From: Anaerolineae bacterium
Lineage (GTDB): Bacteria; Chloroflexota; Anaerolineae; Aggregatilineales; UBA3940
Reading direction: 5' to 3'
Length of the DNA: 64,000 nt
Assembly (NCBI GenBank): GCA_034435015.1
Contig: DAOTYH010000103.1
Coordinates: 741-64,740, forward strand
The position numbers and the translations under genes were made by a program. Below the pieces are notes generated by a model. It searched no databases, was not told where the DNA came from, and was given only the letters and a program-made list of their open reading frames with translations. Of the stretch, positions 28,288 through 51,563 are shown in pieces (within the stretch, counting starts at the first letter, position 1; every line of letters starts with the position of its first letter).

Positions 28288-28842
28288 TTAAATTGAGCGC
28301 CCATGTGACCAAGTCAGCCACTCCCGCATTTGTGTATCGGCGGTGCGAATCTTGGCGGCCAGGTCGGCGGCCAGATTATGCATAAGGCGGTATCCTAGAT
28401 CGGGGTGTGCCTGACACAGTTCCATCAACTTGAGGCGTGGAATGACGACCAGCCTGGTATCCTGCTGACCGCAACGGGCTGAAGCAGAGCGGATTTCCTG
28501 ATCTACCAATGCCATTTCACCAAACGATTGTCCTCGACGCAGGGTGGTGATGATAATCTGCTCAGAAACTGAGCTTTCACCTGTCAGGGATGGGTCCATC
28601 AGGATGTCAACCTCCCCGTCAGCAATGATATACAGCTCATCGCTGGCCGATCCCTGTTCGATGATTATGTCGCCTGTATTGCACGTGATGAGCGTGCTGA
28701 TCGAGGCGACCAGCTCCAGTTGTTCTGTCATAAGGTTCTCAAATATTTCGGCTTGTTTGAGAATTGCCGGTATGGAGGTAAAGTCTTTCATCGCTCGGCC
28801 ATTATCTGAAATCCACTTCTTGTCACGTAAGCATTCTATCAT
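28288..28842 (-). CDS. Cyclic-nucleotide-binding domain protein (stand-alone CAP-effector-like)
   Basis: GDIIIEQGSASDELYIIADGEV...RGQSFGEMALV...RSASARC matches the cNMP-binding beta-barrel and phosphate-binding cassette. No obvious output domain. Confidence 0.7.
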   Translation of the reverse strand: MIECLRDKKWISDNGRAMKDFTSIPAILKQAEIFENLMTEQLELVASISTLITCNTGDIIIEQGSASDELYIIADGEVDILMDPSLTGESSVSEQIIITTLRRGQSFGEMALVDQEIRSASARCGQQDTRLVVIPRLKLMELCQAHPDLGYRLMHNLAADLAAKIRTADTQMREWLTWSHGRSI

Positions 28843-37574: not shown

Positions 37575-37723
37575 CATAGTTTCTGATCAATATGTTGACG
37601 CGAATGCGTCGTTTGCTCTACGCTAGAGCTACGCTCAGACTTGGTGTACATTGCGGGCGTCTCACACGGCGGGGTATACTCGGCTGGAGGTTTGCTCTGA
37701 GATAAAAGGTTGTGTGTTTGAAT

Positions 37724-40558
37724 ATGCGCCGCTTTTTTGGTGTCTTAGCGCTGTTTTCTGTGCTGGCGCTCCAAGGGTCGGCCCTGTCATGGCCTGAGCG
37801 GCAGGCCATTATAGATACAGAGGTCGAGGCTATCTTGGCTCGGATGGGGCCGGAGGAGCGGGTGGGACAGCTCTTTCTCGTAACCTTTTATGGCTCAGAT
37901 TATGGCCCCAATTCGGAGATCGCTAGGCTTATCTCTGAATACCGGGTCGGTGGTGTCGTGTTGTCAGTTGAGAATGGCAATTTCAGTAGTAATGGTGATG
38001 ACCTTCCAGAGCAAATCTACCGCTTGACCAGTGAGCTGCAACGATTAGCAGATGGGCTTCCAGGCGAAGGGGGAGCTGGAGAACTCGATCTGCCTGACAG
38101 TAGCAGAGTTTATATTCCACTATTTGTTGGAGTCGAGCAGGGGGAGAGCTATCCCTACGATTATCTCCCCTACATAATATCCCCTCTGCCAACTAGTATG
38201 GCTATTGGTGCGACGTGGGACCCTGTGTTAGCAAAGGAGGCAGGCAGGATAGCTGGTCAGGAATTGGCGGCACTAGGGTTTAACTTGTTGCTTGGTCCTT
38301 CTGCTGATGTCGTGCAAATTCCGCAACCCTACACTGCTGGTGATATGGGCACGCGCGTATTCGGCGGCGAACCTTTCTGGGTTTCACAGATGACAGCGGC
38401 TTATGTGCGTGGTGTGCATGAGGGCAGTGAGGGGCGTGTAGCTGTTGTGCCGCGTTATTTCCCTGGTTATGGAGGGGCCGACCGCCTTGCGAGTGTCGAG
38501 ATACCTACTGTGCGCCGTTCTCTGGACCAACTGATCCAGTTTGATCTGAAACCGTTCTTCGCTGTAACGGGTAGTGCTACCGATCCATTAGAACGTGCAG
38601 AGGGGCTGATGACAGGACACATCCGTTACCTTGGTTTTCAAGGTGATAACCCGCGCCTGTCAACACGTCCTATCAGCCTCGATCAGCAGGCTTTGCAGGT
38701 ATTACTGCGGCTTGACTCTATCAATTCTTGGAGGCAGAGCGGTGGATTGCTGGTCAGTGATGCGCTTGGTTTGAGGGGAGTACGGCGTTTCTATGATCCA
38801 CGAGAGGCGTCTTTCTCCAATCGGCGTGTTGCCCAGGATGCTTTTCTAGCTGGTAATGATGTTTTGTATCTAGGGAGCTTTGGGGGCAGTTCCTCTGCTG
38901 ATCAGACTGCAAAGATAATAGACACGATAGAGTTTTTTGTTCAGTTGTACAATGCCGACCCCGCCTTTCAGGCGCGGGTGGATGAGTCTGTCCGCCGCAT
39001 TATCCGCACTAAGCTCAATCTGTACCAGCGTTTTGAACTGGATAGGGTATTGTCACAACCAGCGGCTTTGGATGTGGTAGGGCAGAACAGTCAAGTAGCT
39101 CTCAACGTTGCACAGCGTGCACTTACCCTGCTCTCGCCAGAACAGCCTGAGCTATTGTCTGCTCCCCGATCGGGGGAACAAATTGTTATCTTCATGGACA
39201 GTCGTGTTGTCCAACCCTGTCAAACCTGTGTAGCACGTCCGCTTCTTGCCGTAGATGCACTCCAGTCTGCCATCTTGCGTCTGTATGGTCCACAAGCCAG
39301 CGATTTAGTTAGTCTCGCCAATATTCGGAGCTTTTCGTTTGATCAACTATCCAGTTACCTTCAATATGGCCCGCAGGAGGTCATCAGCGGAGAAGGTACA
39401 CCCCAGCCAGATGCTCTGGCCATTGCGTTGAACTCCGCAGACTGGATCGTTTTTGTGATGCTCAATGTTGATACGAGCATCGCGCCTTCATCGGATGTGG
39501 TGAAACGTTTCTTGGCTTCTCCGCCAGTTGGAGCAGATACGCAGATTGTCGTGATGGCGATGGGGGCACCGTACTATCTGGATTCGACTGAGATTGGCAA
39601 GTTGACAGCCTATTACGCTCTCTATGATTACTCGGAGCCTTTTATTGATGTAGCGGCTCGTGCTCTGTTTCTGGGGATTCCGGAGGGCGGTGCTTCTCCC
39701 GTTTCGGTAAGTGGAATTGGTTATGATGTTTTTGAGGCCACCTCGCCTGATCCTGACCAGATCATCAATCTCTCGATCATCAGTGAAGGAGAGAGAGAAG
39801 AAGGAACATTCACACCGACCCCGCCTCTGGCACTGGGACAGGGTGATACCCTCTTTCTGGTAACCAGTGTCATCTTGGATCAGAATGCTCATCCTGTGCC
39901 AGACGGAACACCTGTAGAGTTCATCGTTGAGTATCTGAACACTGGCCTGCGCGATACACTGTCTGCAACGACAACAGGGGGGATAGCAAGGGCTGACCTG
40001 CCCCTAACACGGGCAGGGGACCTGCGTATCACTGCTCAGAGCGGCTCGGCTCGTAATTCGAATGCCATCCGTCTGACTATTCCGGATACAGGGAGTGCGG
40101 TGATCTCGATCTTGCCCCCCGATATTCCGCCTACATCTACCCCAAGCCCGACCGATACCCCCACCCCTGAATCAATGCCGGCCTTGAATTCGACTGCGAC
40201 TCCTGTGATCGAGTCTAACCCTCAGCCGCGAAGTGTCTACTTCCGTGATCTTTTCTTATCTTTGCTAGGCTTGATCGGGATCGGGGGAGCTGTTTTTCTA
40301 TTTGGGCTTAGTAAGCATGACCTGAACTATGCCTTGCTTACCTCTTTGCCGGTGTTCATAGTTGGACTGGTAGGCTACAACTACTATGCTTTGCTGTTGC
40401 CCGGAGCTGGCTTCTGGCGTAGCTTGTTTGGTAGCAGTTGGGGAGCTGGTGTGGCTACTTGGGCAGGCGGATTACTGGGAGCTGGTATGGCCACGCTGGC
40501 TCTTTATGGCTGGGAGCGCTGGGTTGGCCCTTCGTCAGGGAGACAACAGCGTCGGTGA
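37724..40558 (+). CDS. Glycoside hydrolase family 3 (NagZ/BglX-like N-terminal domain) with long C-terminal extension and C-terminal TM helices
   Basis: Signal peptide. GH3 features [30 protein letters not shown] (nucleophile Asp context). A Pro/Thr/Ser linker ([15 protein letters not shown]) is followed by 3-4 hydrophobic helices. Confidence 0.7.
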
Positions 40559-41536
40559 AAGCGCTGTCGCCAGAATGGCGATGAAAAGGAGCACCAATGC
40601 TGTCAGAGCTAGGATCCGGTTGACCGGAGCGACTCGATTCAGGGGATGTCGGCTTTGCAGGTTAGGCCACAGTGTCAACGGACCGGTTGAGAGCAATACG
40701 TCTTTGAACGCCTGTACGCTAGGTGGCCGGTCGTCTGGATGCATTTCTAAGGCCCACAAGATGGCCTGTTCTGATCTGATACTGATATGGGGATTGAGGG
40801 TACGTGGCGGCCTCAATGCACCTGACTGAAGGAAGCGGGTCTTGGCTTCTGCAGGCGGCTCGTTGGTCAGAAGGTGGTAGAGGGTAGCTCCCAGTGAATA
40901 GATGTCAGAACGGGCGTCAGTATGACCAGAGTCTCCGCCGTACTGCTCTAGGGGAGTATAAAGAACTGTACCGCGTCCCTGAATCACCGTCACAGTGCGG
41001 GTATCATCAGGTATCATAACTTTGACAAGCCCGAAATCAACCAGTTTGATCAGTCCGTCAGGCGTCAATTTAATGTTGGCCGGTTTAATATCTCGATGCA
41101 GAACAGGCGGATTCTGGCTATGGAGATAAGTTAAGGCATCGCATAATTGCCCCGCCCAATCTAAAACCTGATGTTCTGGGAGAAAAGAACCTTTACTTCG
41201 GGCTTCTTCGATTTTCTGGCGGAGGTCATTACCAGGGACAAAGTCCATCACAAGGAAATCCCGGTTGTCCTCGCTGAAAAAATCAGATACTTTGGGAAGG
41301 CTGGGGTGATCGAGACGTGCTAAGACACTTGCCTCGCGGTAAAACTGTTCGCGGGCTTGTTCTTGCTCTGTTGGTGAGCTGGCGGGATCGATCTGTATCT
41401 CTTTGATTGCGCAGAAGCGTCCCTTCAACAGGGTATCTTCGGCGCGGTAGACAGAACCCATTCCGCCCTGTCCAACAGTTTCGATAATACGATACCGCGA
41501 TCGGATAATCGTACCCGACCTAAGGGGCGGCAACAT
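40535..41536 (-). CDS. Ser/Thr protein kinase, C-terminally tail-anchored
   Basis: [33 protein letters not shown], and a C-terminal TM helix [19 protein letters not shown]. Start set at the ATG at 41536 after GAGGAG; the track ORF start at 41689 would overlap the divergent gene. Confidence 0.85.
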
Positions 41537-41645
41537 TCTCTTCTCCTCGCGGCCCCAGGTACATGCCAGCACAAGCGGATAGCATGAAGATGGGCGGCCT
41601 GGAGAGACAATAACCTTGTATGGGGGGTTTGTCAAGAGGAGTGGA

Positions 41646-42335
41646 ATGGTGGTCAAGCAAACGGCAGACAAAGACAAACCGGTTCTCATTATTGTCGAGG
41701 GGCCTCTGCAGGGTCAACAGTGGGTTATGCATGGCGATCAGTTGACCATTGGACGTGGTGCGCAATGTGACATTGTCATTCCAGAGCGGAGTATATCACG
41801 AGAGCATGTCCGCATCTGGCGGGAAGGAAAACAGTATTTTATTGAGGATTTGGGTAGCAAGAACGGAACTCATGTCAACGCGGTCAGGCTGGAAAAGCCT
41901 ATTCCACTTAATGAGGGGGACGAGATACAGATCGCACTCTGTGCAAAGATCAAGTTCGTCGGCTCTGAGGCGACAGTGCCTCTCATATTGAAGGAGGGTG
42001 AAGGAGCTGAAATCGGCCTAAGGCTTGATGAACATACCCGTCAGGTTATCATCAATGGCAGACTTCTTGAACCGCAATTATCACTATACCAGTATCGTTT
42101 GCTAGAGATGCTCTACAAAAGCGGAGGCGGCATCTGCACCCGTGATGATGTGGTGCTTGCGGTCTGGCCTGAGGCGGCCAGAGAAGGGGTTAGCGAGCAG
42201 GCTATTGACGCGCTTGTGCGCCGCCTGCGCGACAGACTAGCCGAGCTGTCACCCGATCATGAATACGTTGTAACCGTGCGGGGGCACGGGTTTCGGCTGG
42301 TACAGCCGGGCAAAAACCCAGACTCTACCGGCTGA
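41646..42335 (+). CDS. FHA domain plus OmpR/PhoB-type winged-helix DNA-binding domain regulator
   Basis: N-terminal FHA domain ([46 protein letters not shown]). C-terminal trans_reg_C-like domain ([32 protein letters not shown]...VRRLRDRL...[11 protein letters not shown]). Confidence 0.8.
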
Positions 42336-42377: not shown

Positions 42378-44348
42378 TTAAGTGAGCGCTATGTATTCGT
42401 CTTTGACCAGCATGGGCTTGTCAATATGGAGGTAAGCTAGCAGTTCGGAGATGGCGTCCGCCTTATTCTCAGCGTCTATTCTTGACCAAGTACGGCTCTT
42501 CAACTCTAGATAGTGCCCCTCCAACGCAGGCTCAATGAGCCTATCAAGATTGACATAGATGCGAAGCCCTTTGTAGTCAATGTGCCACCGGCGGCGCTCC
42601 TTGGTGATGGTACGTTCTGACCGAGCCTGAAAATATTCTCTATAGAAACGGAGGGGTCTTGTGGCAGGCGCAATATAGCGTGAGCGTGAGAGCAGGATGG
42701 CGTTGCTGAACTCACGCTCTTTGCCAGGGCTGGTCAATGTCAGGCGGGTCCGCACATTGCAGACATTGCCCTTCTCGTCAAGGTAATCGTCCTCCCGATA
42801 GCGTACACGTTCATAGTTAGGCGGCCCAAACTCAAAATAGGTGTCGTATTGCCGATAAGAAGAATACTTGACTGGTATAACGTCAGGGTGTTTGAACAGT
42901 AGTTCAATTTGCTCAGGACTTTGCAGGCGGGCTTTGACCTGTACCTCAAAGCTTTCTTCCTGTTGCAATTCTCCAATGGCCAGCAGTTTAGATAGGATGT
43001 CGCCCTCGCGCTCAATGAGAAAGATGTCAATACGTTTGGCAATGGCGGCGGCCTGATAGAGCAGTTCATTCATGTCCAGAGTCAGCAAAACACGGTCGCG
43101 CATCAGCCAGACCCCATTACACATAACGTGTTGTACGTCACTACTCTTGGTCGCGTAAATGAGGCGTGAATAGATCGCCTCAGGGTCGCGGTTGAAGAAG
43201 GGCCAGTTATGGACACGCTCCAAGCCAACTACCACTATATCTGCCCGTTTGCCCGGCTCCAGCGAGCCTGTCAGGTCTCCTAGGTGGAGTGCCCGTGCGC
43301 CCATGCTGGTGGCCATAGTCAAGGCCTGCTTTGCTGGTAGTGCGGTTGGGCTGTCTGTGGCCACTTTAGCAAGCAATGCGGCGAGGCGGGTCTCTTCGAA
43401 CATATCTAGATCGTTATTGCTGGCTGGGCCGTCGGTGCCGATCCCTACGTTCAGCCCCAGCTCAAGCATCTGATTGACAGGCGCCATGCCACTGGCAAGC
43501 TTCAGATTGCTGGTCGGATTGTGGGCTACGCCTGCCTTATGATGAAGAAGGGTTCGCATTTCTCCTTCATCAACATGGACGCAATGAGCCGCAATGACTT
43601 TCGCATCAAACAGGTTCTGCTTCTTGAGCCAGGGCACGACTGGCATGCCGTATTGTTTCCGATTATCGGCAACTTCAAGGGCTGTCTCGCTGACGTGAAT
43701 GTGCAGGGGGACATCATATTCGACTGCCAGCGCGGCACAGGCTTGCAGGATTTCGGGTGTACAGGTGTAGGCGGCATGGGGCGAGACGGCGGGCACGATC
43801 AGGGGGTGGTCTTTCCATTTGGTGATGAAGGCATGACACGCTTCCAAGCTTTCTTCATAGCTGGGGGCGTCAGGGGACGGAAATTTAAGTATCGTTTGCC
43901 CGCAGACTGCCCGCACCCCGACCTGGACACAGGTGCTGGCAACACTGTCCTCGAAATAGTACATGTCCGCAAAGGTAGTGACACCAGACTGGATCATCTC
44001 GGCACAAGCCAAGGCTGTGCCAATTCGTACAAAGTCTGGGTTTACAAATTCGCGTTCGGTGGGCATCATGTATCCCATCAGCCAGACGTCAAGCCTTAGA
44101 TCGTCGGCTAAACCGCGTAGCAGAGTCATTGGGGCATGAGTGTGGGCATTGATGAGTCCTGGAATGATTGCACTGCCGGAGCAGTCTATGACTTCGGAAG
44201 CTTGATAGTCACGGTTGATCTGGTCTGCTTGCCCTACAGCGATGATCTTATCGCCCTTAACAGCAATTGCGCCATTCTCGATAATCGAGTACGACTCATC
44301 CATCATTACAACAGTGCCATTGGTGAGGATGGTATCAGCAAGCTTCAT
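42378..44348 (-). CDS. MtaD-like amidohydrolase (5-methylthioadenosine/S-adenosylhomocysteine deaminase family) fused to a C-terminal CYTH (triphosphate tunnel/class IV cyclase-like) domain
   Basis: Residues 1-440 carry INAHTHAPMTLLRGLADD, HIHVSET, HCVH and GIGTDG metal ligands. Residues ~460-645 (nt ~42414-42971) carry FEVQVKARL, RQYDTYF, RVRYRE and KERRRWHIDYKGLRIYVNLDRL...GHYLELKS, which are CYTH-like strands. Confidence 0.7.
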   Translation of the reverse strand: MKLADTILTNGTVVMMDESYSIIENGAIAVKGDKIIAVGQADQINRDYQASEVIDCSGSAIIPGLINAHTHAPMTLLRGLADDLRLDVWLMGYMMPTEREFVNPDFVRIGTALACAEMIQSGVTTFADMYYFEDSVASTCVQVGVRAVCGQTILKFPSPDAPSYEESLEACHAFITKWKDHPLIVPAVSPHAAYTCTPEILQACAALAVEYDVPLHIHVSETALEVADNRKQYGMPVVPWLKKQNLFDAKVIAAHCVHVDEGEMRTLLHHKAGVAHNPTSNLKLASGMAPVNQMLELGLNVGIGTDGPASNNDLDMFEETRLAALLAKVATDSPTALPAKQALTMATSMGARALHLGDLTGSLEPGKRADIVVVGLERVHNWPFFNRDPEAIYSRLIYATKSSDVQHVMCNGVWLMRDRVLLTLDMNELLYQAAAIAKRIDIFLIEREGDILSKLLAIGELQQEESFEVQVKARLQSPEQIELLFKHPDVIPVKYSSYRQYDTYFEFGPPNYERVRYREDDYLDEKGNVCNVRTRLTLTSPGKEREFSNAILLSRSRYIAPATRPLRFYREYFQARSERTITKERRRWHIDYKGLRIYVNLDRLIEPALEGHYLELKSRTWSRIDAENKADAISELLAYLHIDKPMLVKDEYIALT

Positions 44349-44424
44349 GATGCCTCCCGTAATCTAGTAGTGAGGCCAATTATAGTCGCCTGAGGGATCG
44401 TTACAAGGAGCAACGCCGTTAAAG

Positions 44425-46359
44425 ATGGGTTCGAAACGCATTTTCCGCTTGATAGAGGGCAGTTTGGTGGCCTTGTTTTTGATACAGGCTGTGCGCGTAG
44501 TCTTTGCGATGCTACTTAGCATGATCAATGTGGCTTTAGACACTCAGCGTGTTGATCTGCTCATTGTGAACGCGCACCTGTTTCTGGCCGCCGCCCTGAT
44601 TCTGTCCTGGTTCGCCCCTCGCGCTCGTTCGGCCTTGCCCGGAACGCTCAGCGTAAGTGCGATCATCGTTGCAGTGGGGCGGGTATTTATGTCATTTCAG
44701 GCTCCACCGGTGCGGTTGTATTCTGCGCTGGTCGTCATTGGCTTTGGCGGCGTTTATTTTGCCTCTCTGCTCAGGGCCAACTGGCGGGGCTGGGTTTCAA
44801 ACTTGATAGTGGCCATGACGTTCGATCAACTCTTGCGTGCTTGGGACACTTACGACTTCTCTCTGCGCATATGGTTCGATCTGTATGTAGGCGATTTGTT
44901 GCGTCGTGTCCCCTGGCTTGCTGTTCAAATCCTCTTGTCGGTACTTGTTGTTGTTGCCAGCCGAATGGCACGGCGCTCGGCTAGGTCAGAGCCATATGAA
45001 CCTGCTTTTCTGGGAATATGGGGAGGGCTGTCTGTTGGTAGTTTCTTGGCTCTGGAAACCCTTCTGCTGGCAATGCCTAATGTGATAGCCCGGTGGGCTG
45101 GTGTACCTTATGCCGCACTTGTCCCTTGGTTACTGCTTGCTACTGCACTGCCGCTGATGCCTGGCATCCGTGAACTGATGGCTCGAACGTTGGAGACATT
45201 TGATGATCGATTGCGCGGCTGGGTCTGGTTATTCATGTTTCTGGTCATGTTTGTAGTCGGGAATCGCTTGGGCGGGTGGGGAGCGGCCGGGGCGCTGATC
45301 GTGGCACAGTTCATGGCGGTCCTGACGCTCTGGTGTGTCCCAAGCCCGCCTGACCCGGTCGAGGTAGAGCAGGTGGGGCCGTCGCTCAGTGTGGGGTTGT
45401 TTGTTTTCGTCGCGTTGGTCTACGTATATAGTTTCACCTTTGAATATGCTCGGACATTTGCCTGGCTTGAAGATCAGGGGTTAGTTGTGATATTGGTTGC
45501 GGCAGGACTACTGGGGGTGTCACGCCTGTCATGGCGTGAAGAAGACCCTTGGCAGATTAAGCCGTCAATACCTAGGGCAGTTGCTACTGCCTTTGTCTTC
45601 CCAGTGACTGTTTTGGGCCTGATCTTGAGCGGCTTGGGCGCTCAGCCTGTGCCTCCCCTGCCCCATGGAACATTACGTCTGGCAACCTACAATATCAATG
45701 GGGGGTATGATGAAGCGGGCATGTTTCAGATGGAGCTGATCGCCCGTACCATTGAAGCCAGCTTGGCCGATGTAGTGGCTTTACAAGAAGTAGATGTGGG
45801 GCGACCGGTCAGCTACGGTGCAGACGAGGTACAGTTCCTTGCGCGTCGTCTTGGGATGTACCAAGCTTACCAGCCGACCATAGGCCAGATGCGCGGCGTG
45901 GCTATCCTTTCGAGGTGGCCGATCACCGGTAGTGTAGGAGTGCTGATACCCGGAGCGGATGAGCAACAAGGGGCCTTGCGAAGCCTGTTACAAGAGCCTG
46001 CAACAGGCCGCTCGATAGTTATGGTCAGTGCACAGCTTTTGCCCGGAGACAATCAACAGCGCCTAGAGCAACTGGCGGTGTTGTTGAGCCTGATTGACGA
46101 TCTGTCCCCCGTAGTGTTGGGAGCAGATTTAGGGTTCTCGACAGAAGAAGATGTGATCTACCAGCAACTTCTGTCTGCTGGCTTTGTTGATCCGGACAAG
46201 GTATTGGGCATCGAGAGAGGCTTCACTTTTCCGGCAAGCAATCCCATGTACCGGCAAGATTATATTCTTGTGTTAGGAGCAACGCCGAGCGATTCGCGCC
46301 AGGTAGACAGCCGCGCTTCCGACCATCGCCTGGTTGTTATTGAGATAGGCTGGCCTTAA
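44425..46359 (+). CDS. Polytopic membrane protein with C-terminal endonuclease/exonuclease/phosphatase (EEP) domain
   Basis: About 10 hydrophobic segments in the first ~400 aa, then LRLATYNINGG...ALQEVD...SDHRLVVIEI, which are EEP motifs. Confidence 0.7.
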   Translation: MGSKRIFRLIEGSLVALFLIQAVRVVFAMLLSMINVALDTQRVDLLIVNAHLFLAAALILSWFAPRARSALPGTLSVSAIIVAVGRVFMSFQAPPVRLYSALVVIGFGGVYFASLLRANWRGWVSNLIVAMTFDQLLRAWDTYDFSLRIWFDLYVGDLLRRVPWLAVQILLSVLVVVASRMARRSARSEPYEPAFLGIWGGLSVGSFLALETLLLAMPNVIARWAGVPYAALVPWLLLATALPLMPGIRELMARTLETFDDRLRGWVWLFMFLVMFVVGNRLGGWGAAGALIVAQFMAVLTLWCVPSPPDPVEVEQVGPSLSVGLFVFVALVYVYSFTFEYARTFAWLEDQGLVVILVAAGLLGVSRLSWREEDPWQIKPSIPRAVATAFVFPVTVLGLILSGLGAQPVPPLPHGTLRLATYNINGGYDEAGMFQMELIARTIEASLADVVALQEVDVGRPVSYGADEVQFLARRLGMYQAYQPTIGQMRGVAILSRWPITGSVGVLIPGADEQQGALRSLLQEPATGRSIVMVSAQLLPGDNQQRLEQLAVLLSLIDDLSPVVLGADLGFSTEEDVIYQQLLSAGFVDPDKVLGIERGFTFPASNPMYRQDYILVLGATPSDSRQVDSRASDHRLVVIEIGWP

Positions 46360-49214: not shown

Positions 49215-51083
49215 CTATTGAAGTCCGCTTAGCTTGTCAAGATCAGGTGTTTTACAGCCTGCTCCGGTGATGGACAGAACAATCAGTGCATCTTCTGGAA
49301 ACTGGGCCACTACCTGTTCCAGCGCGGGCCAGACCGTTGCGCTGGTCGGCTCGGCTAATATGCCGCGCCGGGCAAGCTGATGCAAACCTTGTATGATGTC
49401 CGCTTCTTCTACTACTGTGATAGTCCCCTGAGACTTCCGGATTGCGTCAAGGATGGTCTTTGCTCGCGGCGGGCTGGCAACCCGTATTCCCTCGGCCAGT
49501 GTATGCCCTTCGCTCTGGGAGGGGATTGGCCCATTGCTGTTGTGAAAACGAACCCACAGGGGAGCACAGGCCTTAGCTTGTACGCCGATCAACTTTGGAT
49601 GATGGCTGGCTAAACCGGCAGTCAGGAGGTCGGTAAAGCCGCGTGCAAGGCCCAATAACTGGGTGCCGTTGCCTACAGGCAGGATGACAACATCCGGGGC
49701 ACGACGGCCCAACTGCTCCCATATCTCGTAGGCGATGGTCTTGTTCGCCAGTATGACGTATGGATTGTAGACGTGGCTGGCGTAGTAAGAAGTCCCCATC
49801 TCCGAAGCTTGCCTTGCCGCTTGCGATGCCGCACTGCGCGGGCCAGGCACTTTCTCTAAATGAGCGCCGTATAACACGATCTGAGCAAGTTTGATCGGAG
49901 AGGCAGTCTCTGGTACAAAAATGCTGGTTTCGATGCCCGCTTGAGCCGCATAGGCGGCTAAGGCGGCACCGGCATTGCCAGATGAATCCTCATGAACCCT
50001 TTGGATTCCGCGTGCCTTGAGGACGGAGGCCAATAAAGAAGCCCCGCGATCCTTGAACGAGCCTGTCGGATTGAGACTCTCCAACTTGAGCCAGATGGTG
50101 CGTCCCATGAAGTGCGTTTGGATAAGAGGAGTCCAGCCTTCCCCTAGCGAGACAGGTACAATGCCGGGCGGAGTCAACATGGCCTGATAGCGCCAGAGGG
50201 AAGTTACATCGTGCTTGATGGCGTGCTGGTCGAAAGTGGGAGTACAGGTGAACTCAAGAGGTGATCCGCAGTTGCACTCTATTTGGTTAGTGTCAAGGGG
50301 ATAAGTTTGGCCGCAATTTGGACATCCTAGAGTGAAACCGCCCAGTCCAGCTAGTTCGTTGTTCCTACGGACATCCGTTGGGGTAGGGTGGTAGTACCCT
50401 TCAACCCAGAAGCTCCCTTCTGGACCAACTTCTTTTTTCCAGACAGGGACGATCTCTTTCAGTCGGTTGATGCCATAGCGGGTAGCCTCGAAGCACCCAT
50501 CGTCGCGATGCCTGCTGGAGCAAGCCACTATGACAGTTGTATCCCCTACCTGTAGCCTGCCGATGCGTTGCACAATGGCGATGCCCAACACCTTTGGGAA
50601 ACGTTCCCGTATCTCGCTGGCGATCTGATGCAGCATCTTCTCTGCCATGGGCTGGTAGGCTTCGTAGAGCAGATATTCAGTCTCAAACTGGTTAGCGGAG
50701 TTGAAAGTCACCCCTCTGACTGTGCCGTTAAAGAAGCAAACCGCCCCTGTCTCTGGGGTGGTAATCGCGTTAATCAGAGTGCCAAGATCAGGAAGGTTAG
50801 GGGTAATAGCAAAATATTCTGGAAAATCACTCTTGCCGAGGCCGCCGCTGACTGGTGGGAACAGCGCAATCTTATCTCCATCATGAATGGGGTCTTCAGG
50901 GAAAGCGTACTGATCGTTGAGGGCTACCAGTGCGCTGGGCAGAGAGGTCTGTAGGGAAGGAAAGTATTCTGATAGGTGAGCTAAAAGTATGGCAACTGTA
51001 GCCGGCTCAGGCAGTTCAACGCTGATCTGTTCTATGCCTGCCTGCTCACGCAAGGTAGCAAAAAGATGTACAACAACCTGCAT
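49215..51083 (-). CDS. Triple fusion: MoaD-like sulfur carrier, MoaE (molybdopterin synthase catalytic subunit), and threonine-synthase-like PLP enzyme
   Basis: Residues 1-81 are MoaD-like and end in FPPVSGG. Residues ~85-235 are MoaE (AVCFFNGTVRG...VACSSRHRDDGCFEATRYGINRLKEIVPVWKKE). Residues ~245-622 have a CPNCG...CNCG ribbon, LWRYQAML, SLGEGWTPL and NPTGSFKDRGA (PLP lysine). It is one uninterrupted ORF starting 3 nt after the moaC stop. Confidence 0.8.
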   Translation of the reverse strand: MQVVVHLFATLREQAGIEQISVELPEPATVAILLAHLSEYFPSLQTSLPSALVALNDQYAFPEDPIHDGDKIALFPPVSGGLGKSDFPEYFAITPNLPDLGTLINAITTPETGAVCFFNGTVRGVTFNSANQFETEYLLYEAYQPMAEKMLHQIASEIRERFPKVLGIAIVQRIGRLQVGDTTVIVACSSRHRDDGCFEATRYGINRLKEIVPVWKKEVGPEGSFWVEGYYHPTPTDVRRNNELAGLGGFTLGCPNCGQTYPLDTNQIECNCGSPLEFTCTPTFDQHAIKHDVTSLWRYQAMLTPPGIVPVSLGEGWTPLIQTHFMGRTIWLKLESLNPTGSFKDRGASLLASVLKARGIQRVHEDSSGNAGAALAAYAAQAGIETSIFVPETASPIKLAQIVLYGAHLEKVPGPRSAASQAARQASEMGTSYYASHVYNPYVILANKTIAYEIWEQLGRRAPDVVILPVGNGTQLLGLARGFTDLLTAGLASHHPKLIGVQAKACAPLWVRFHNSNGPIPSQSEGHTLAEGIRVASPPRAKTILDAIRKSQGTITVVEEADIIQGLHQLARRGILAEPTSATVWPALEQVVAQFPEDALIVLSITGAGCKTPDLDKLSGLQ

Positions 51084-51086
51084 AGC

Positions 51087-51563
51087 CTATTCTAACACCA
51101 CATCCCCTGACTGACCGCCGCGTTTTTCAACCAGCCGGACAGCCTCAATACGCATACCCCGATCAACCGCTTTAACCATGTCATAAACGGTTAATGCGGC
51201 GACAGATACTGCCGTCAGAGCTTCCATCTCAACACCAGTTTTTCCAACAGTTTGGACACGGGCCTCGATCAGGACACAGGAAGCTTGTTCGTCCAGCGAG
51301 AGGTTTACTTCAATGTGTGTTACCGGCAGAGGATGGCACAGGGGGATCAATTCGGCGGTACGCTTGGCCGCCATAATGCCCGCTATCTGGGCGACAGCAA
51401 GCACATCGCCCTTCTTGACGGCGCTGTTGCGGATCAGAGCCAGTGTTTCGGGCTTCATCGCGACACGACCGCGAGCAACCGCGACCCGTACGGTATCGGG
51501 CTTGCTCCCGACATCAACCATAGTGACGTGTCCTGTCTTGTCCACGTGCGTGAGTTCACCCAC
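51087..51563 (-). CDS. moaC: Cyclic pyranopterin monophosphate synthase accessory protein MoaC
   Basis: [18 protein letters not shown]...IPLCHPLP...[10 protein letters not shown] are canonical MoaC motifs. Confidence 0.9.

Follow-up and report, generated by a model that had tools for sequence, protein, structure and literature searches.

Domains of the CYTH or triphosphate tunnel metalloenzyme (TTM) kind are ancient and widespread, and their physiological roles are mostly unclear. In this study we analysed a 64,000-nucleotide stretch of contig DAOTYH010000103.1 (the whole stretch is called the window below) from a member of the Anaerolineae, bacteria that are abundant in sludge, sediments and hot springs. 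A single gene of the window, at 42378-44348 on the minus strand, encodes a protein predicted to join a nucleoside deaminase of the MtaD type to a C-terminal CYTH domain with an altered metal-binding signature.

Described systems are available for comparison with both halves of this protein. In the triphosphatase SaTTM, E7 and E135 hold metal 1, and the water-activating metal 2 has E5, E7 and E137 as ligands; the second glutamate of the ExExK motif binds both metals (PMC8233210). The plant proteins AtTTM1 and AtTTM2 have glutamines in place of the ExExK glutamates, no metal was seen in them, and their basic tunnel binds citrate; the tunnel packs through a short rigid helical linker on a P-loop uridine/cytidine-kinase-like domain, of which it is the proposed regulator (PMC9582702). 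Fusion partners of CYTH domains named in reviews are CHAD, HD, exopolyphosphatase and nucleotide kinases, and amidohydrolases are not among them. No description of an amidohydrolase-CYTH fusion was found in the literature searched, and no PF01979/PF07969 architecture is present among the entries listed in the sequence similarity network (SSN) tables of PMC8233210. Deaminases of 5'-methylthioadenosine (MTA) and S-adenosylhomocysteine (SAH) are described as stand-alone, single-module proteins of ~405-470 amino acids (aa), such as Chromobacterium Cv1032 (4F0R/4F0S), Pseudomonas PA3170 (4GBD/4DYK), the Xanthomonas enzyme (4DZH) and Thermotoga Tm0936 (1P1M/2PLM). Unlike these, the family described here has ~230 aa more, comprising a linker and a tunnel domain. 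Its parts are as follows.

42378-44348, minus strand: complete deaminase-CYTH gene, 656 codons plus a stop at 42378-42380 (list of open reading frames, ORFs).
43074-44348, minus strand: residues 1-425, amidohydrolase (beta/alpha)8 barrel with a composite beta-sandwich, predicted to belong to the MTA/SAH/5'-deoxyadenosine deaminase clade (Pfam, NCBIfam, PDB, Foldseek).
42975-43073, minus strand: residues 426-458, two-helix linker (MNELLYQAAAIAKRIDIFLIEREGDILSKLLAI), with helices 426-448 and 451-458 in the full-length AlphaFold2 (AF2) model.
42381-42974, minus strand: residues 459-656, predicted divergent CYTH/TTM beta-tunnel domain (AF2 models, Foldseek, family-wide Pfam matches, hhalign).

The 656-aa ORF of the original prediction is real by both the ORF list and re-translation, and re-translation likewise returned each motif quoted for it at its place (HTH, HVSE, HCVH and GTDG in the deaminase; EVQVK, QYDTYF, RVRYRE, KERRRWH, VNLDRL and YLELKS in the C-terminal region).

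The assignment of the C-terminal region to CYTH, first made from its strand pattern, is upheld by profile and structure comparisons. The Pfam model PF01928 (CYTH), with a gathering score of 23.2, scores the full-length protein at 16.8 bits and its isolated C-terminal 210 aa at 20.6 bits (E=4e-4). The same model is matched by 18 of 33 relatives at E<0.01 (best 3.4e-8), and one family member, P0243, exceeds the gathering score with 26.4 bits. When the family profile was aligned by hhalign to five CYTH sequences from the PDB, 137 columns were covered, with the motifs in register (E=3e-4, probability 39.7%); these five segments were recovered with a consensus-like CYTH query of our own making and were used only there. 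The AF2 model of residues 447-656 (pLDDT 87.5, pTM 0.83) contains eight long strands and three helices, located at model positions 32-38 (after beta1), 120-127 (between beta5 and beta6) and 177-193 (the long C-terminal helix), which is the topology of the stand-alone CYTH enzymes (beta1-alpha-beta2-5-alpha-beta6-8-plug helix). All its top Foldseek matches in the PDB are CYTH/TTM structures, namely 1yem, 2een, SaTTM 7nsf/7ns9, 2aca, thiamine triphosphatase (ThTPase) 5a64, CyaB 3n0z, AtTTM3 and AtTTM1, at E values of 1e-7 to 1e-5, a probability of 1.0 and target TM scores of 0.66-0.74. Sequence searches of the PDB with the C-terminal domain (phmmer) and with a 33-sequence profile (hmmsearch) found no CYTH entry, the divergence of the family being too great for such searches. 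The weak PF01928 score is thus backed by independent evidence from the family-wide Pfam matches, hhalign, the AF2 fold and Foldseek, and the modelled structure identifies the C-terminal domain as a divergent CYTH domain with a predicted eight-stranded tunnel fold.

The architecture is common. A scan of one genome per GTDB species revealed relatives in no fewer than 586 species genomes, and the best 80 loci were inspected. Nearly all of these 80 carry a Chloroflexota label, in most cases Anaerolineae, and among the order- to genus-level labels are Anaerolineales, Aggregatilineales, Ardenticatenia and Thermoflexales; the few non-Anaerolineae labels are Chloroflexaceae, Thermotogota and Pleurocapsa bins. 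A continuous frame of at least 634 codons is present in all 71 of the loci that are free of contig-edge cuts, and the identical 656-aa product (P0001) was also called on independent assemblies. Exhaustive searching of 1.84 billion representative proteins with a family profile yielded only 324 matches, and those examined among the best 150 were the fusion or its fragments. No genuine stand-alone form of the CYTH domain was found among the 200-260-aa candidates followed up. These results agree with the original prediction in treating the ORF as one gene and not two, and they bear directly on the explanation that the fusion is an artefact, in the form of a misassembled or frameshift-joined gene pair or of a chance resemblance to CYTH. 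That explanation could draw on the PF01928 score under the gathering threshold and on the PDB sequence searches without a match; the recurrence of the same fusion across species genomes and independent assemblies, together with the concordance of fold search, hhalign and family-wide Pfam matches, effectively refutes it. The fusion is one real gene, and to judge by the loci and proteins surveyed it seems to be the obligatory form in several hundred species of Anaerolineae.

Several database entries resembled exceptions and were rejected. The candidate stand-alone CYTH protein P0137, on a 4.2-Mb contig, is the fusion broken by frameshifts into three pieces, and other short candidates are contig-edge fragments from clusters with 657-673-aa members. 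P0357, in which the domain match is accompanied by Glyco_hydro_77, appears to be a chimera or a frameshifted call. The 4.2-Mb long-read contig (contig_6098 of European Nucleotide Archive (ENA) entry ERZ25039513; locus L001, 4774-6765) carries the orthologue split into ORFs of 264, 132 and 254 aa, next to a likewise split gene for a membrane protein with an endonuclease/exonuclease/phosphatase (EEP) domain. Such splitting is typical of indel errors, and assemblies of this kind yield false 'stand-alone CYTH' database proteins.

The tunnel domain has retained most of the canonical CYTH motifs and has changed two of them. Their positions, assigned by hhalign and counted over the family, are listed below.

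42933-42947, minus strand: E468-V-Q470-V-K472 on beta1, the ExExK motif with the second Glu replaced by Gln (E 386/387, Q 393/397, K 397/398).
42837-42845, minus strand: D502-T-Y504 on beta2, the DxY water-positioning motif, kept (D 407/411, Y 403/411).
42795-42809, minus strand: R514-V-R516-Y-R518 on beta3, the phosphate-binding RxR with a third arginine added (R516 408/410, R518 407/411).
42738-42752, minus strand: R533-T-R535-L-T537 on beta4, extra conserved arginines; the position of the canonical beta4 Lys is T539.
42588-42602, minus strand: K583-E-R585-R-R587 on beta6, basic tunnel residues (406/408, 404/407 and 404/410).
42543-42551, minus strand: N600-L-D602 on beta7, with L601-D602 as the canonical 'LD' (D602 403/405).
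42498-42506, minus strand: E615-L-K617 on beta8, the ExE motif with the second Glu (metal-2 ligand) replaced by Lys (E 392/392, K 389/391).

The first of the two changes, Glu to Gln in ExExK, had been recognised in the original prediction and holds throughout the family; the second, in E615-L-K617, had been missed. On beta8, hhalign pairs GHYLELKS with the canonical GKFIEIET, and by the same alignment SaTTM E7 corresponds to Q470 and SaTTM E137 to K617. Both family-typical ligands of metal 2, as defined in SaTTM, are therefore removed, and two of the four metal-binding glutamates are, on this alignment, lost from the CYTH domain. The combination of ExQxK and ExK is family-defining, and both Q470 and K617 are kept even in the most divergent full-length relative (P0320, 41% identity).

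The rest of the site is strongly conserved. Over ~390 family sequences, E468, K472, R516, R518, K583, R585, R587, D602 and E615 are at least 99% conserved, and R516, R518, K583 and R585, with D502 and Y504, are at least 98% conserved and aligned to canonical CYTH counterparts. Strand positions with tunnel-facing parity are 85% polar and hold 15 Lys or Arg against 8 Asp or Glu, whereas the opposite face is 44% polar. Compared with canonical CYTH domains, R533, R535, R587 and R619 are added arginines, the beta4 Lys is a Thr, and the acidic beta5 face is apparently Ser/Arg, at a strand where the profile alignment is poor. In the plug helix, W621, D625 and K629 are near-invariant. The basic lining of the tunnel thus appears to be kept and enlarged, and the conservation pattern indicates a CYTH site that is remodelled and under strong selection, not decaying. 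The original prediction had offered a 'degenerate ligand sensor' as one possibility; the evidence favours the sensor part and speaks against the word degenerate, the tunnel-facing residues being the most conserved in the domain. The same pattern makes it very improbable that the barrel binds no ligand and serves only for structure or oligomerisation. Dimers are known among CYTH proteins, SaTTM being one, and the fold relatives Med18 and Med20 are purely structural, but what is conserved here is mainly the charged residues that face the tunnel, not a hydrophobic surface, and 15 conserved Lys or Arg residues inside a barrel would carry a cost unless a ligand acted as counter-ion.

Among described CYTH proteins, the best structural matches to the domain are the stand-alone triphosphatases of SSN cluster 3 (SaTTM 7NS8-7NSF, PH1819 2EEN and Pfu 1YEM; TM 0.66-0.74), with which it has in common DxY, RxR, KxR, LD and the first Glu in both ExExK and ExE. 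It differs from them in the Gln of ExExK, the Lys of ExE, the Thr at the beta4 Lys position and the apparent loss of the acidic beta5 face, as well as in having added arginines, in always being fused and in lying beyond the reach of PDB sequence search. The resemblance to AtTTM1/2 (PDB 7Z67) is of another kind and concerns the whole protein. AtTTM1 itself is among the Foldseek matches (7z67, E=2.3e-6), and the plant proteins likewise have an N-terminal nucleoside-metabolising domain, a helical linker and a C-terminal TTM tunnel, with Glu-to-Gln change in ExExK and a conserved basic tunnel lining. Unlike in plants, the partner domain is an amidohydrolase deaminase and not a P-loop kinase, only the second ExExK Glu is changed instead of both, and ExE has also become ExK. 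The proteins described here are furthermore bacterial (Chloroflexota) and have no transmembrane anchor, and no evidence was found for common descent of the two fusions.

The N-terminal module was annotated and compared in the same manner, and its MtaD-type assignment is well supported. Pfam Amidohydro_1 matches residues 61-414 at E=1e-74, and the five top NCBIfam models are all of the MTA/SAH/5'-deoxyadenosine deaminase type (PRK09045, PRK06038, PRK07228 (DadD), PRK08393 and PRK15493 (MtaD)). In the PDB sequence ranking, 4F0R (MTA/SAH deaminase, E=3e-94), 3LNP, 4DZH, 4DYK/4GBD and Tm0936 lead, and 8-oxoguanine, isocytosine, guanine and triazine enzymes rank lower, at E of 1e-51 or weaker; the NCBIfam models follow this order too. 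Identity to the stand-alone MTA/SAH deaminases is ~39% over ~430 residues, the metal and catalytic residues are identical, and the deaminase module of the full-length AF2 model superimposes on 4gbd, 4dyk, 4f0r, 4dzh and 3lnp with TM 0.95-0.97 and a root-mean-square deviation of 1.3-1.7 A (Foldseek). H69, H71, H191, H218, E221, H255 and D306 are all invariant in 122 homologues. The motifs that contain all of these but H191 were located by translation as follows.

44136-44144, minus strand: H69-T-H71, the HxH metal ligands.
43686-43697, minus strand: H218-V-S-E221, with what we take, from amidohydrolase-superfamily deaminases, to be the metal-ligand His (H218) and the proton-shuttle Glu (E221).
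43575-43586, minus strand: H255-C-V-H258, with a catalytic His.
43431-43433, minus strand: D306 of GTDG, metal ligand and catalytic Asp (G304, T305, D306 and G307 invariant in the 122 homologues).

Taken together, the alignments identify the N-terminal module as an intact MtaD/DadD-type Zn-dependent deaminase with a complete set of catalytic residues, its exact substrate being predicted. The domain lies under every NCBIfam equivalog cut-off (461.6 against 540 bits for PRK09045, 359.5 against 522 for PRK07228 and 309.6 against 779 for PRK15493), and by these scores it is a separate subfamily within the MtaD/DadD type, which explains the bare 'amidohydrolase' label of the databases. Source labels for the family are 'amidohydrolase' or 'MTA/SAH deaminase', and one fragment is labelled 'CYTH domain-containing protein'.

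These features also bear on a further explanation, in which the tunnel captures the substrate by holding the polyphosphate tail of ATP, dATP, ApnA or adenosine thiamine triphosphate while the deaminase converts its adenine, which would make the protein a deaminase of nucleotides instead of MTA or SAH. CYTH tunnels bind nucleoside triphosphates (NTPs) with the organic moiety at one end, the near-invariant W621, D625 and K629 of the plug helix could touch an organic group, and a fixed arrangement of the two domains is suggested by the full-length model. We nevertheless regard this explanation as improbable, because the deaminase domain is so close to the MTA/SAH deaminases in identity and superposition, has in common with them the substrate loop LLRGLADD...WL...P.E and shows no sign of a pocket enlarged for phosphates. 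Conversion of ATP to ITP by a conserved housekeeping gene would, moreover, be expected to be harmful.

The region between the domains is conserved as well. I440 and E448 of the linker are invariant in the 122 homologues, and conservation reaches 90% or more at D441, F443, L444, R447, K454 and L455. The full-length AF2 model (pLDDT 91.3, pTM 0.85) suggests, through its pTM, a defined inter-domain arrangement. Alignment with 4F0R/3LNP revealed a 5-residue insertion in the deaminase at residues 384-394 (~43167-43199; FFNRDPEAIYS against F--DP---IS), with conserved P383, F385, Y393 and Y398 in and around it, which may be part of the inter-domain interface.

Starting from the architecture, fold, motif changes, conservation and taxonomic spread observed here, we propose, by analogy with plant TTM1/2, that the tunnel is a non-hydrolytic binder of tri- or polyphosphate or of a nucleotide, and that it regulates the fused deaminase; we consider this reading to have about an even chance of being right. 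The deaminase would convert 5'-substituted adenosines derived from S-adenosylmethionine (SAM) chemistry (MTA, SAH and 5'-deoxyadenosine) to the corresponding inosines. The tunnel would not perform canonical two-metal gamma-phosphate hydrolysis and would still bind a tri- or polyphosphate ligand such as inorganic tripolyphosphate (PPPi), an NTP, short polyphosphate (polyP) or an alarmone, which could occur without a second metal, with K617 at the metal-2 position. Occupancy by this ligand would tune or gate the deaminase through allosteric coupling, and disposal or salvage of SAM by-products would thereby be tied to the nucleotide or phosphate status of the cell. The three explanations in which the tunnel is catalytic, captures the substrate or is purely structural are ranked lower than this sensor function.

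Four points weigh against the proposed sensor. The hhalign probability is 39.7%, and the residue equivalences therefore rest on motif register and fold. E468, E615 and D602 are invariant and Gln is able to ligate Mg or Mn, such that one metal site may persist and catalysis may be possible. AtTTM1/2, although without both glutamates, keep weak pyrophosphatase activity in vitro (PMC9582702). The neighbourhood of the gene, made up of opposite-strand housekeeping or signalling genes, gives no functional clue.

The second and third of these points belong to the explanation that the protein is bifunctional, with a CYTH domain that is still a triphosphatase, pyrophosphatase or nucleotide cyclase. In this case one metal would be held by E468, Q470 and E615, K617 would take over from metal 2 in stabilising the transition state, and PPPi or an NTP would be processed in parallel to the deaminase reaction. 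The near-invariance of the altered residues would suit an active site no less than a binding site, and class IV cyclases are active though they also do not have the second Glu of ExE. In SaTTM and other TTMs, however, metal 2 depends on precisely the two altered positions, and Table S1 of PMC8233210 contains no characterised CYTH enzyme without the second Glu in both motifs. We therefore consider the bifunctional explanation unlikely.

A cyclase function in particular finds no counterpart in the sequence. Class IV cyclases are recognised by an HF separated from ExExK by four residues, a small residue where RxRxR has its central Arg, and ExA on beta8 (PMC8233210). In the family alignment, HF is absent at -6/-5 of ExExK, where positions 462 and 463 are E/Q/V and Q/E/R; the small RxRxR residue and ExA are also absent, R516 being present in 408/410 and K617 standing where cyclases have Ala. 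The family thus resembles the class IV adenylyl cyclase CyaB (2FJT, 3N0Y) in its CYTH fold and in a second residue of the C-terminal ExE that is not Glu, and differs from it by having no HFxxxxExExK extension, by keeping the central RxRxR Arg and by having Lys instead of Ala after the ExE glutamate. Thiamine triphosphatases carry a W/YxRxR aromatic residue that stacks on the thiazolium ring. This aromatic is not conserved in the family, in which position 512 varies (Q 180, K 32, G 26 and others) and is Tyr only in the protein described here and a few more.

A more specific form of the sensor reading is a bacterial 'pseudo-TTM' receptor, in which Lys replaces metal 2, the tunnel binds a phosphate-rich signal or by-product (PPPi, short polyP, an NTP or an alarmone) and the bound ligand switches the deaminase allosterically. 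We put this forward tentatively, as possible more than probable. In a rarer variant of the same case, the enzyme may deaminate a triphosphorylated adenine compound lodged in the tunnel.

The gene has candidate upstream signals of its own. M1 is kept in at least 90% of the 122 homologues, and a GGGAGG ribosome-binding site lies ~8 nt upstream of the ATG, downstream of a promoter-like site.

44379-44406, minus strand: promoter-like TTGTAA-16-TATAAT (consensus scan, 10/12 positions, and sequence read; a consensus match only).

A terminator-like hairpin inside the gene (42929-42954, plus strand) was dismissed, since chance alone would give 2.1 such hairpins and one was found. The two neighbours lie on the plus strand, namely the gene of a regulator with FHA and winged helix-turn-helix (wHTH) domains at 41616-42335 and that of a multi-transmembrane (multi-TM) Exo_endo_phos protein at 44425-46359, and the deaminase-CYTH gene is therefore probably monocistronic. 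Among the 80 related loci, the multi-TM/EEP gene recurs in 41, the FHA-wHTH gene in 34, rnc in 33 and fabF in 29. This synteny reflects conserved chromosome order and not an operon, and since the syntenic neighbours are opposite-strand or housekeeping genes, no functional inference was drawn from them. No SAM or MTA genes were found near the deaminase-CYTH gene in the 64-kb window.

The neighbouring genes have features of their own. The divergent gene at 44425-46359 (plus strand), separated from the deaminase gene by a gap of 76 bp, encodes a 644-aa protein whose N-terminal ~400 aa form a multi-TM region and whose C-terminal part is an Exo_endo_phos / PGAP2IP-like nuclease-phosphatase domain; its 41 homologues in the related loci are at the same position. 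On the other side, a Ser/Thr protein kinase gene (40535-41689, minus strand) stands head-to-head with the FHA-wHTH gene, whose winged helix is of the OmpR type (Trans_reg_C) and which is convergent with the deaminase gene in the 34 loci. The longest-ORF calls of the kinase and FHA-wHTH genes share 74 nt, an artefact of ORF extension, because other gene callers give 333 and 229 aa.

The original prediction had also linked the protein, speculatively, to a cyclic-nucleotide (cNMP) binding gene. This gene (28288-28842, minus strand) encodes a stand-alone 184-aa cNMP-binding-domain protein (E=2e-15) between CinA and MiaA. It lies 14 kb away, and as the hallmarks of class IV cyclases are absent from the CYTH domain, the link is without support; no adenylyl cyclase was identified among the window ORFs scanned.

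Two other genes of the window may be mentioned. That at 37712-40558 (plus strand) encodes a 948-aa glycoside hydrolase family 3 protein with a Pro/Thr-rich linker and C-terminal transmembrane helices. The 622-aa ORF at 49215-51083 (minus strand) consists of a ThiS/MoaD-like domain (residues 5-81), MoaE (99-210) and a pyridoxal-phosphate-dependent PALP domain (311-607); MoaC adjoins it, and 51087-51563 (minus strand) was noted alongside. This fusion of molybdopterin synthase with a cysteine/threonine-synthase-like domain is unusual and may be a sulfur-carrier-dependent thiol amino-acid synthase.

Both domains of the deaminase-CYTH protein are of known kinds, and what is new is a widespread, uncharacterised architecture with an ExQxK/ExK signature. 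A family with this signature is a natural test of the role of the metal-2 site and a bacterial counterpart to the plant TTM1/2 pseudo-enzymes. A new principle would follow only if the sensor function or a new chemistry were proven. A catalytic tunnel would represent a new, one-metal TTM chemistry. If the sensor function is true, the disposal of inhibitory SAM by-products (MTA, SAH and 5'-deoxyadenosine) would be coupled to the energy or phosphate state of the cell; the protein would then be a prokaryotic CYTH sensor, of which the literature searched contains no description, and would directly link phosphate or nucleotide status to the recycling of SAM by-products across a whole bacterial class.

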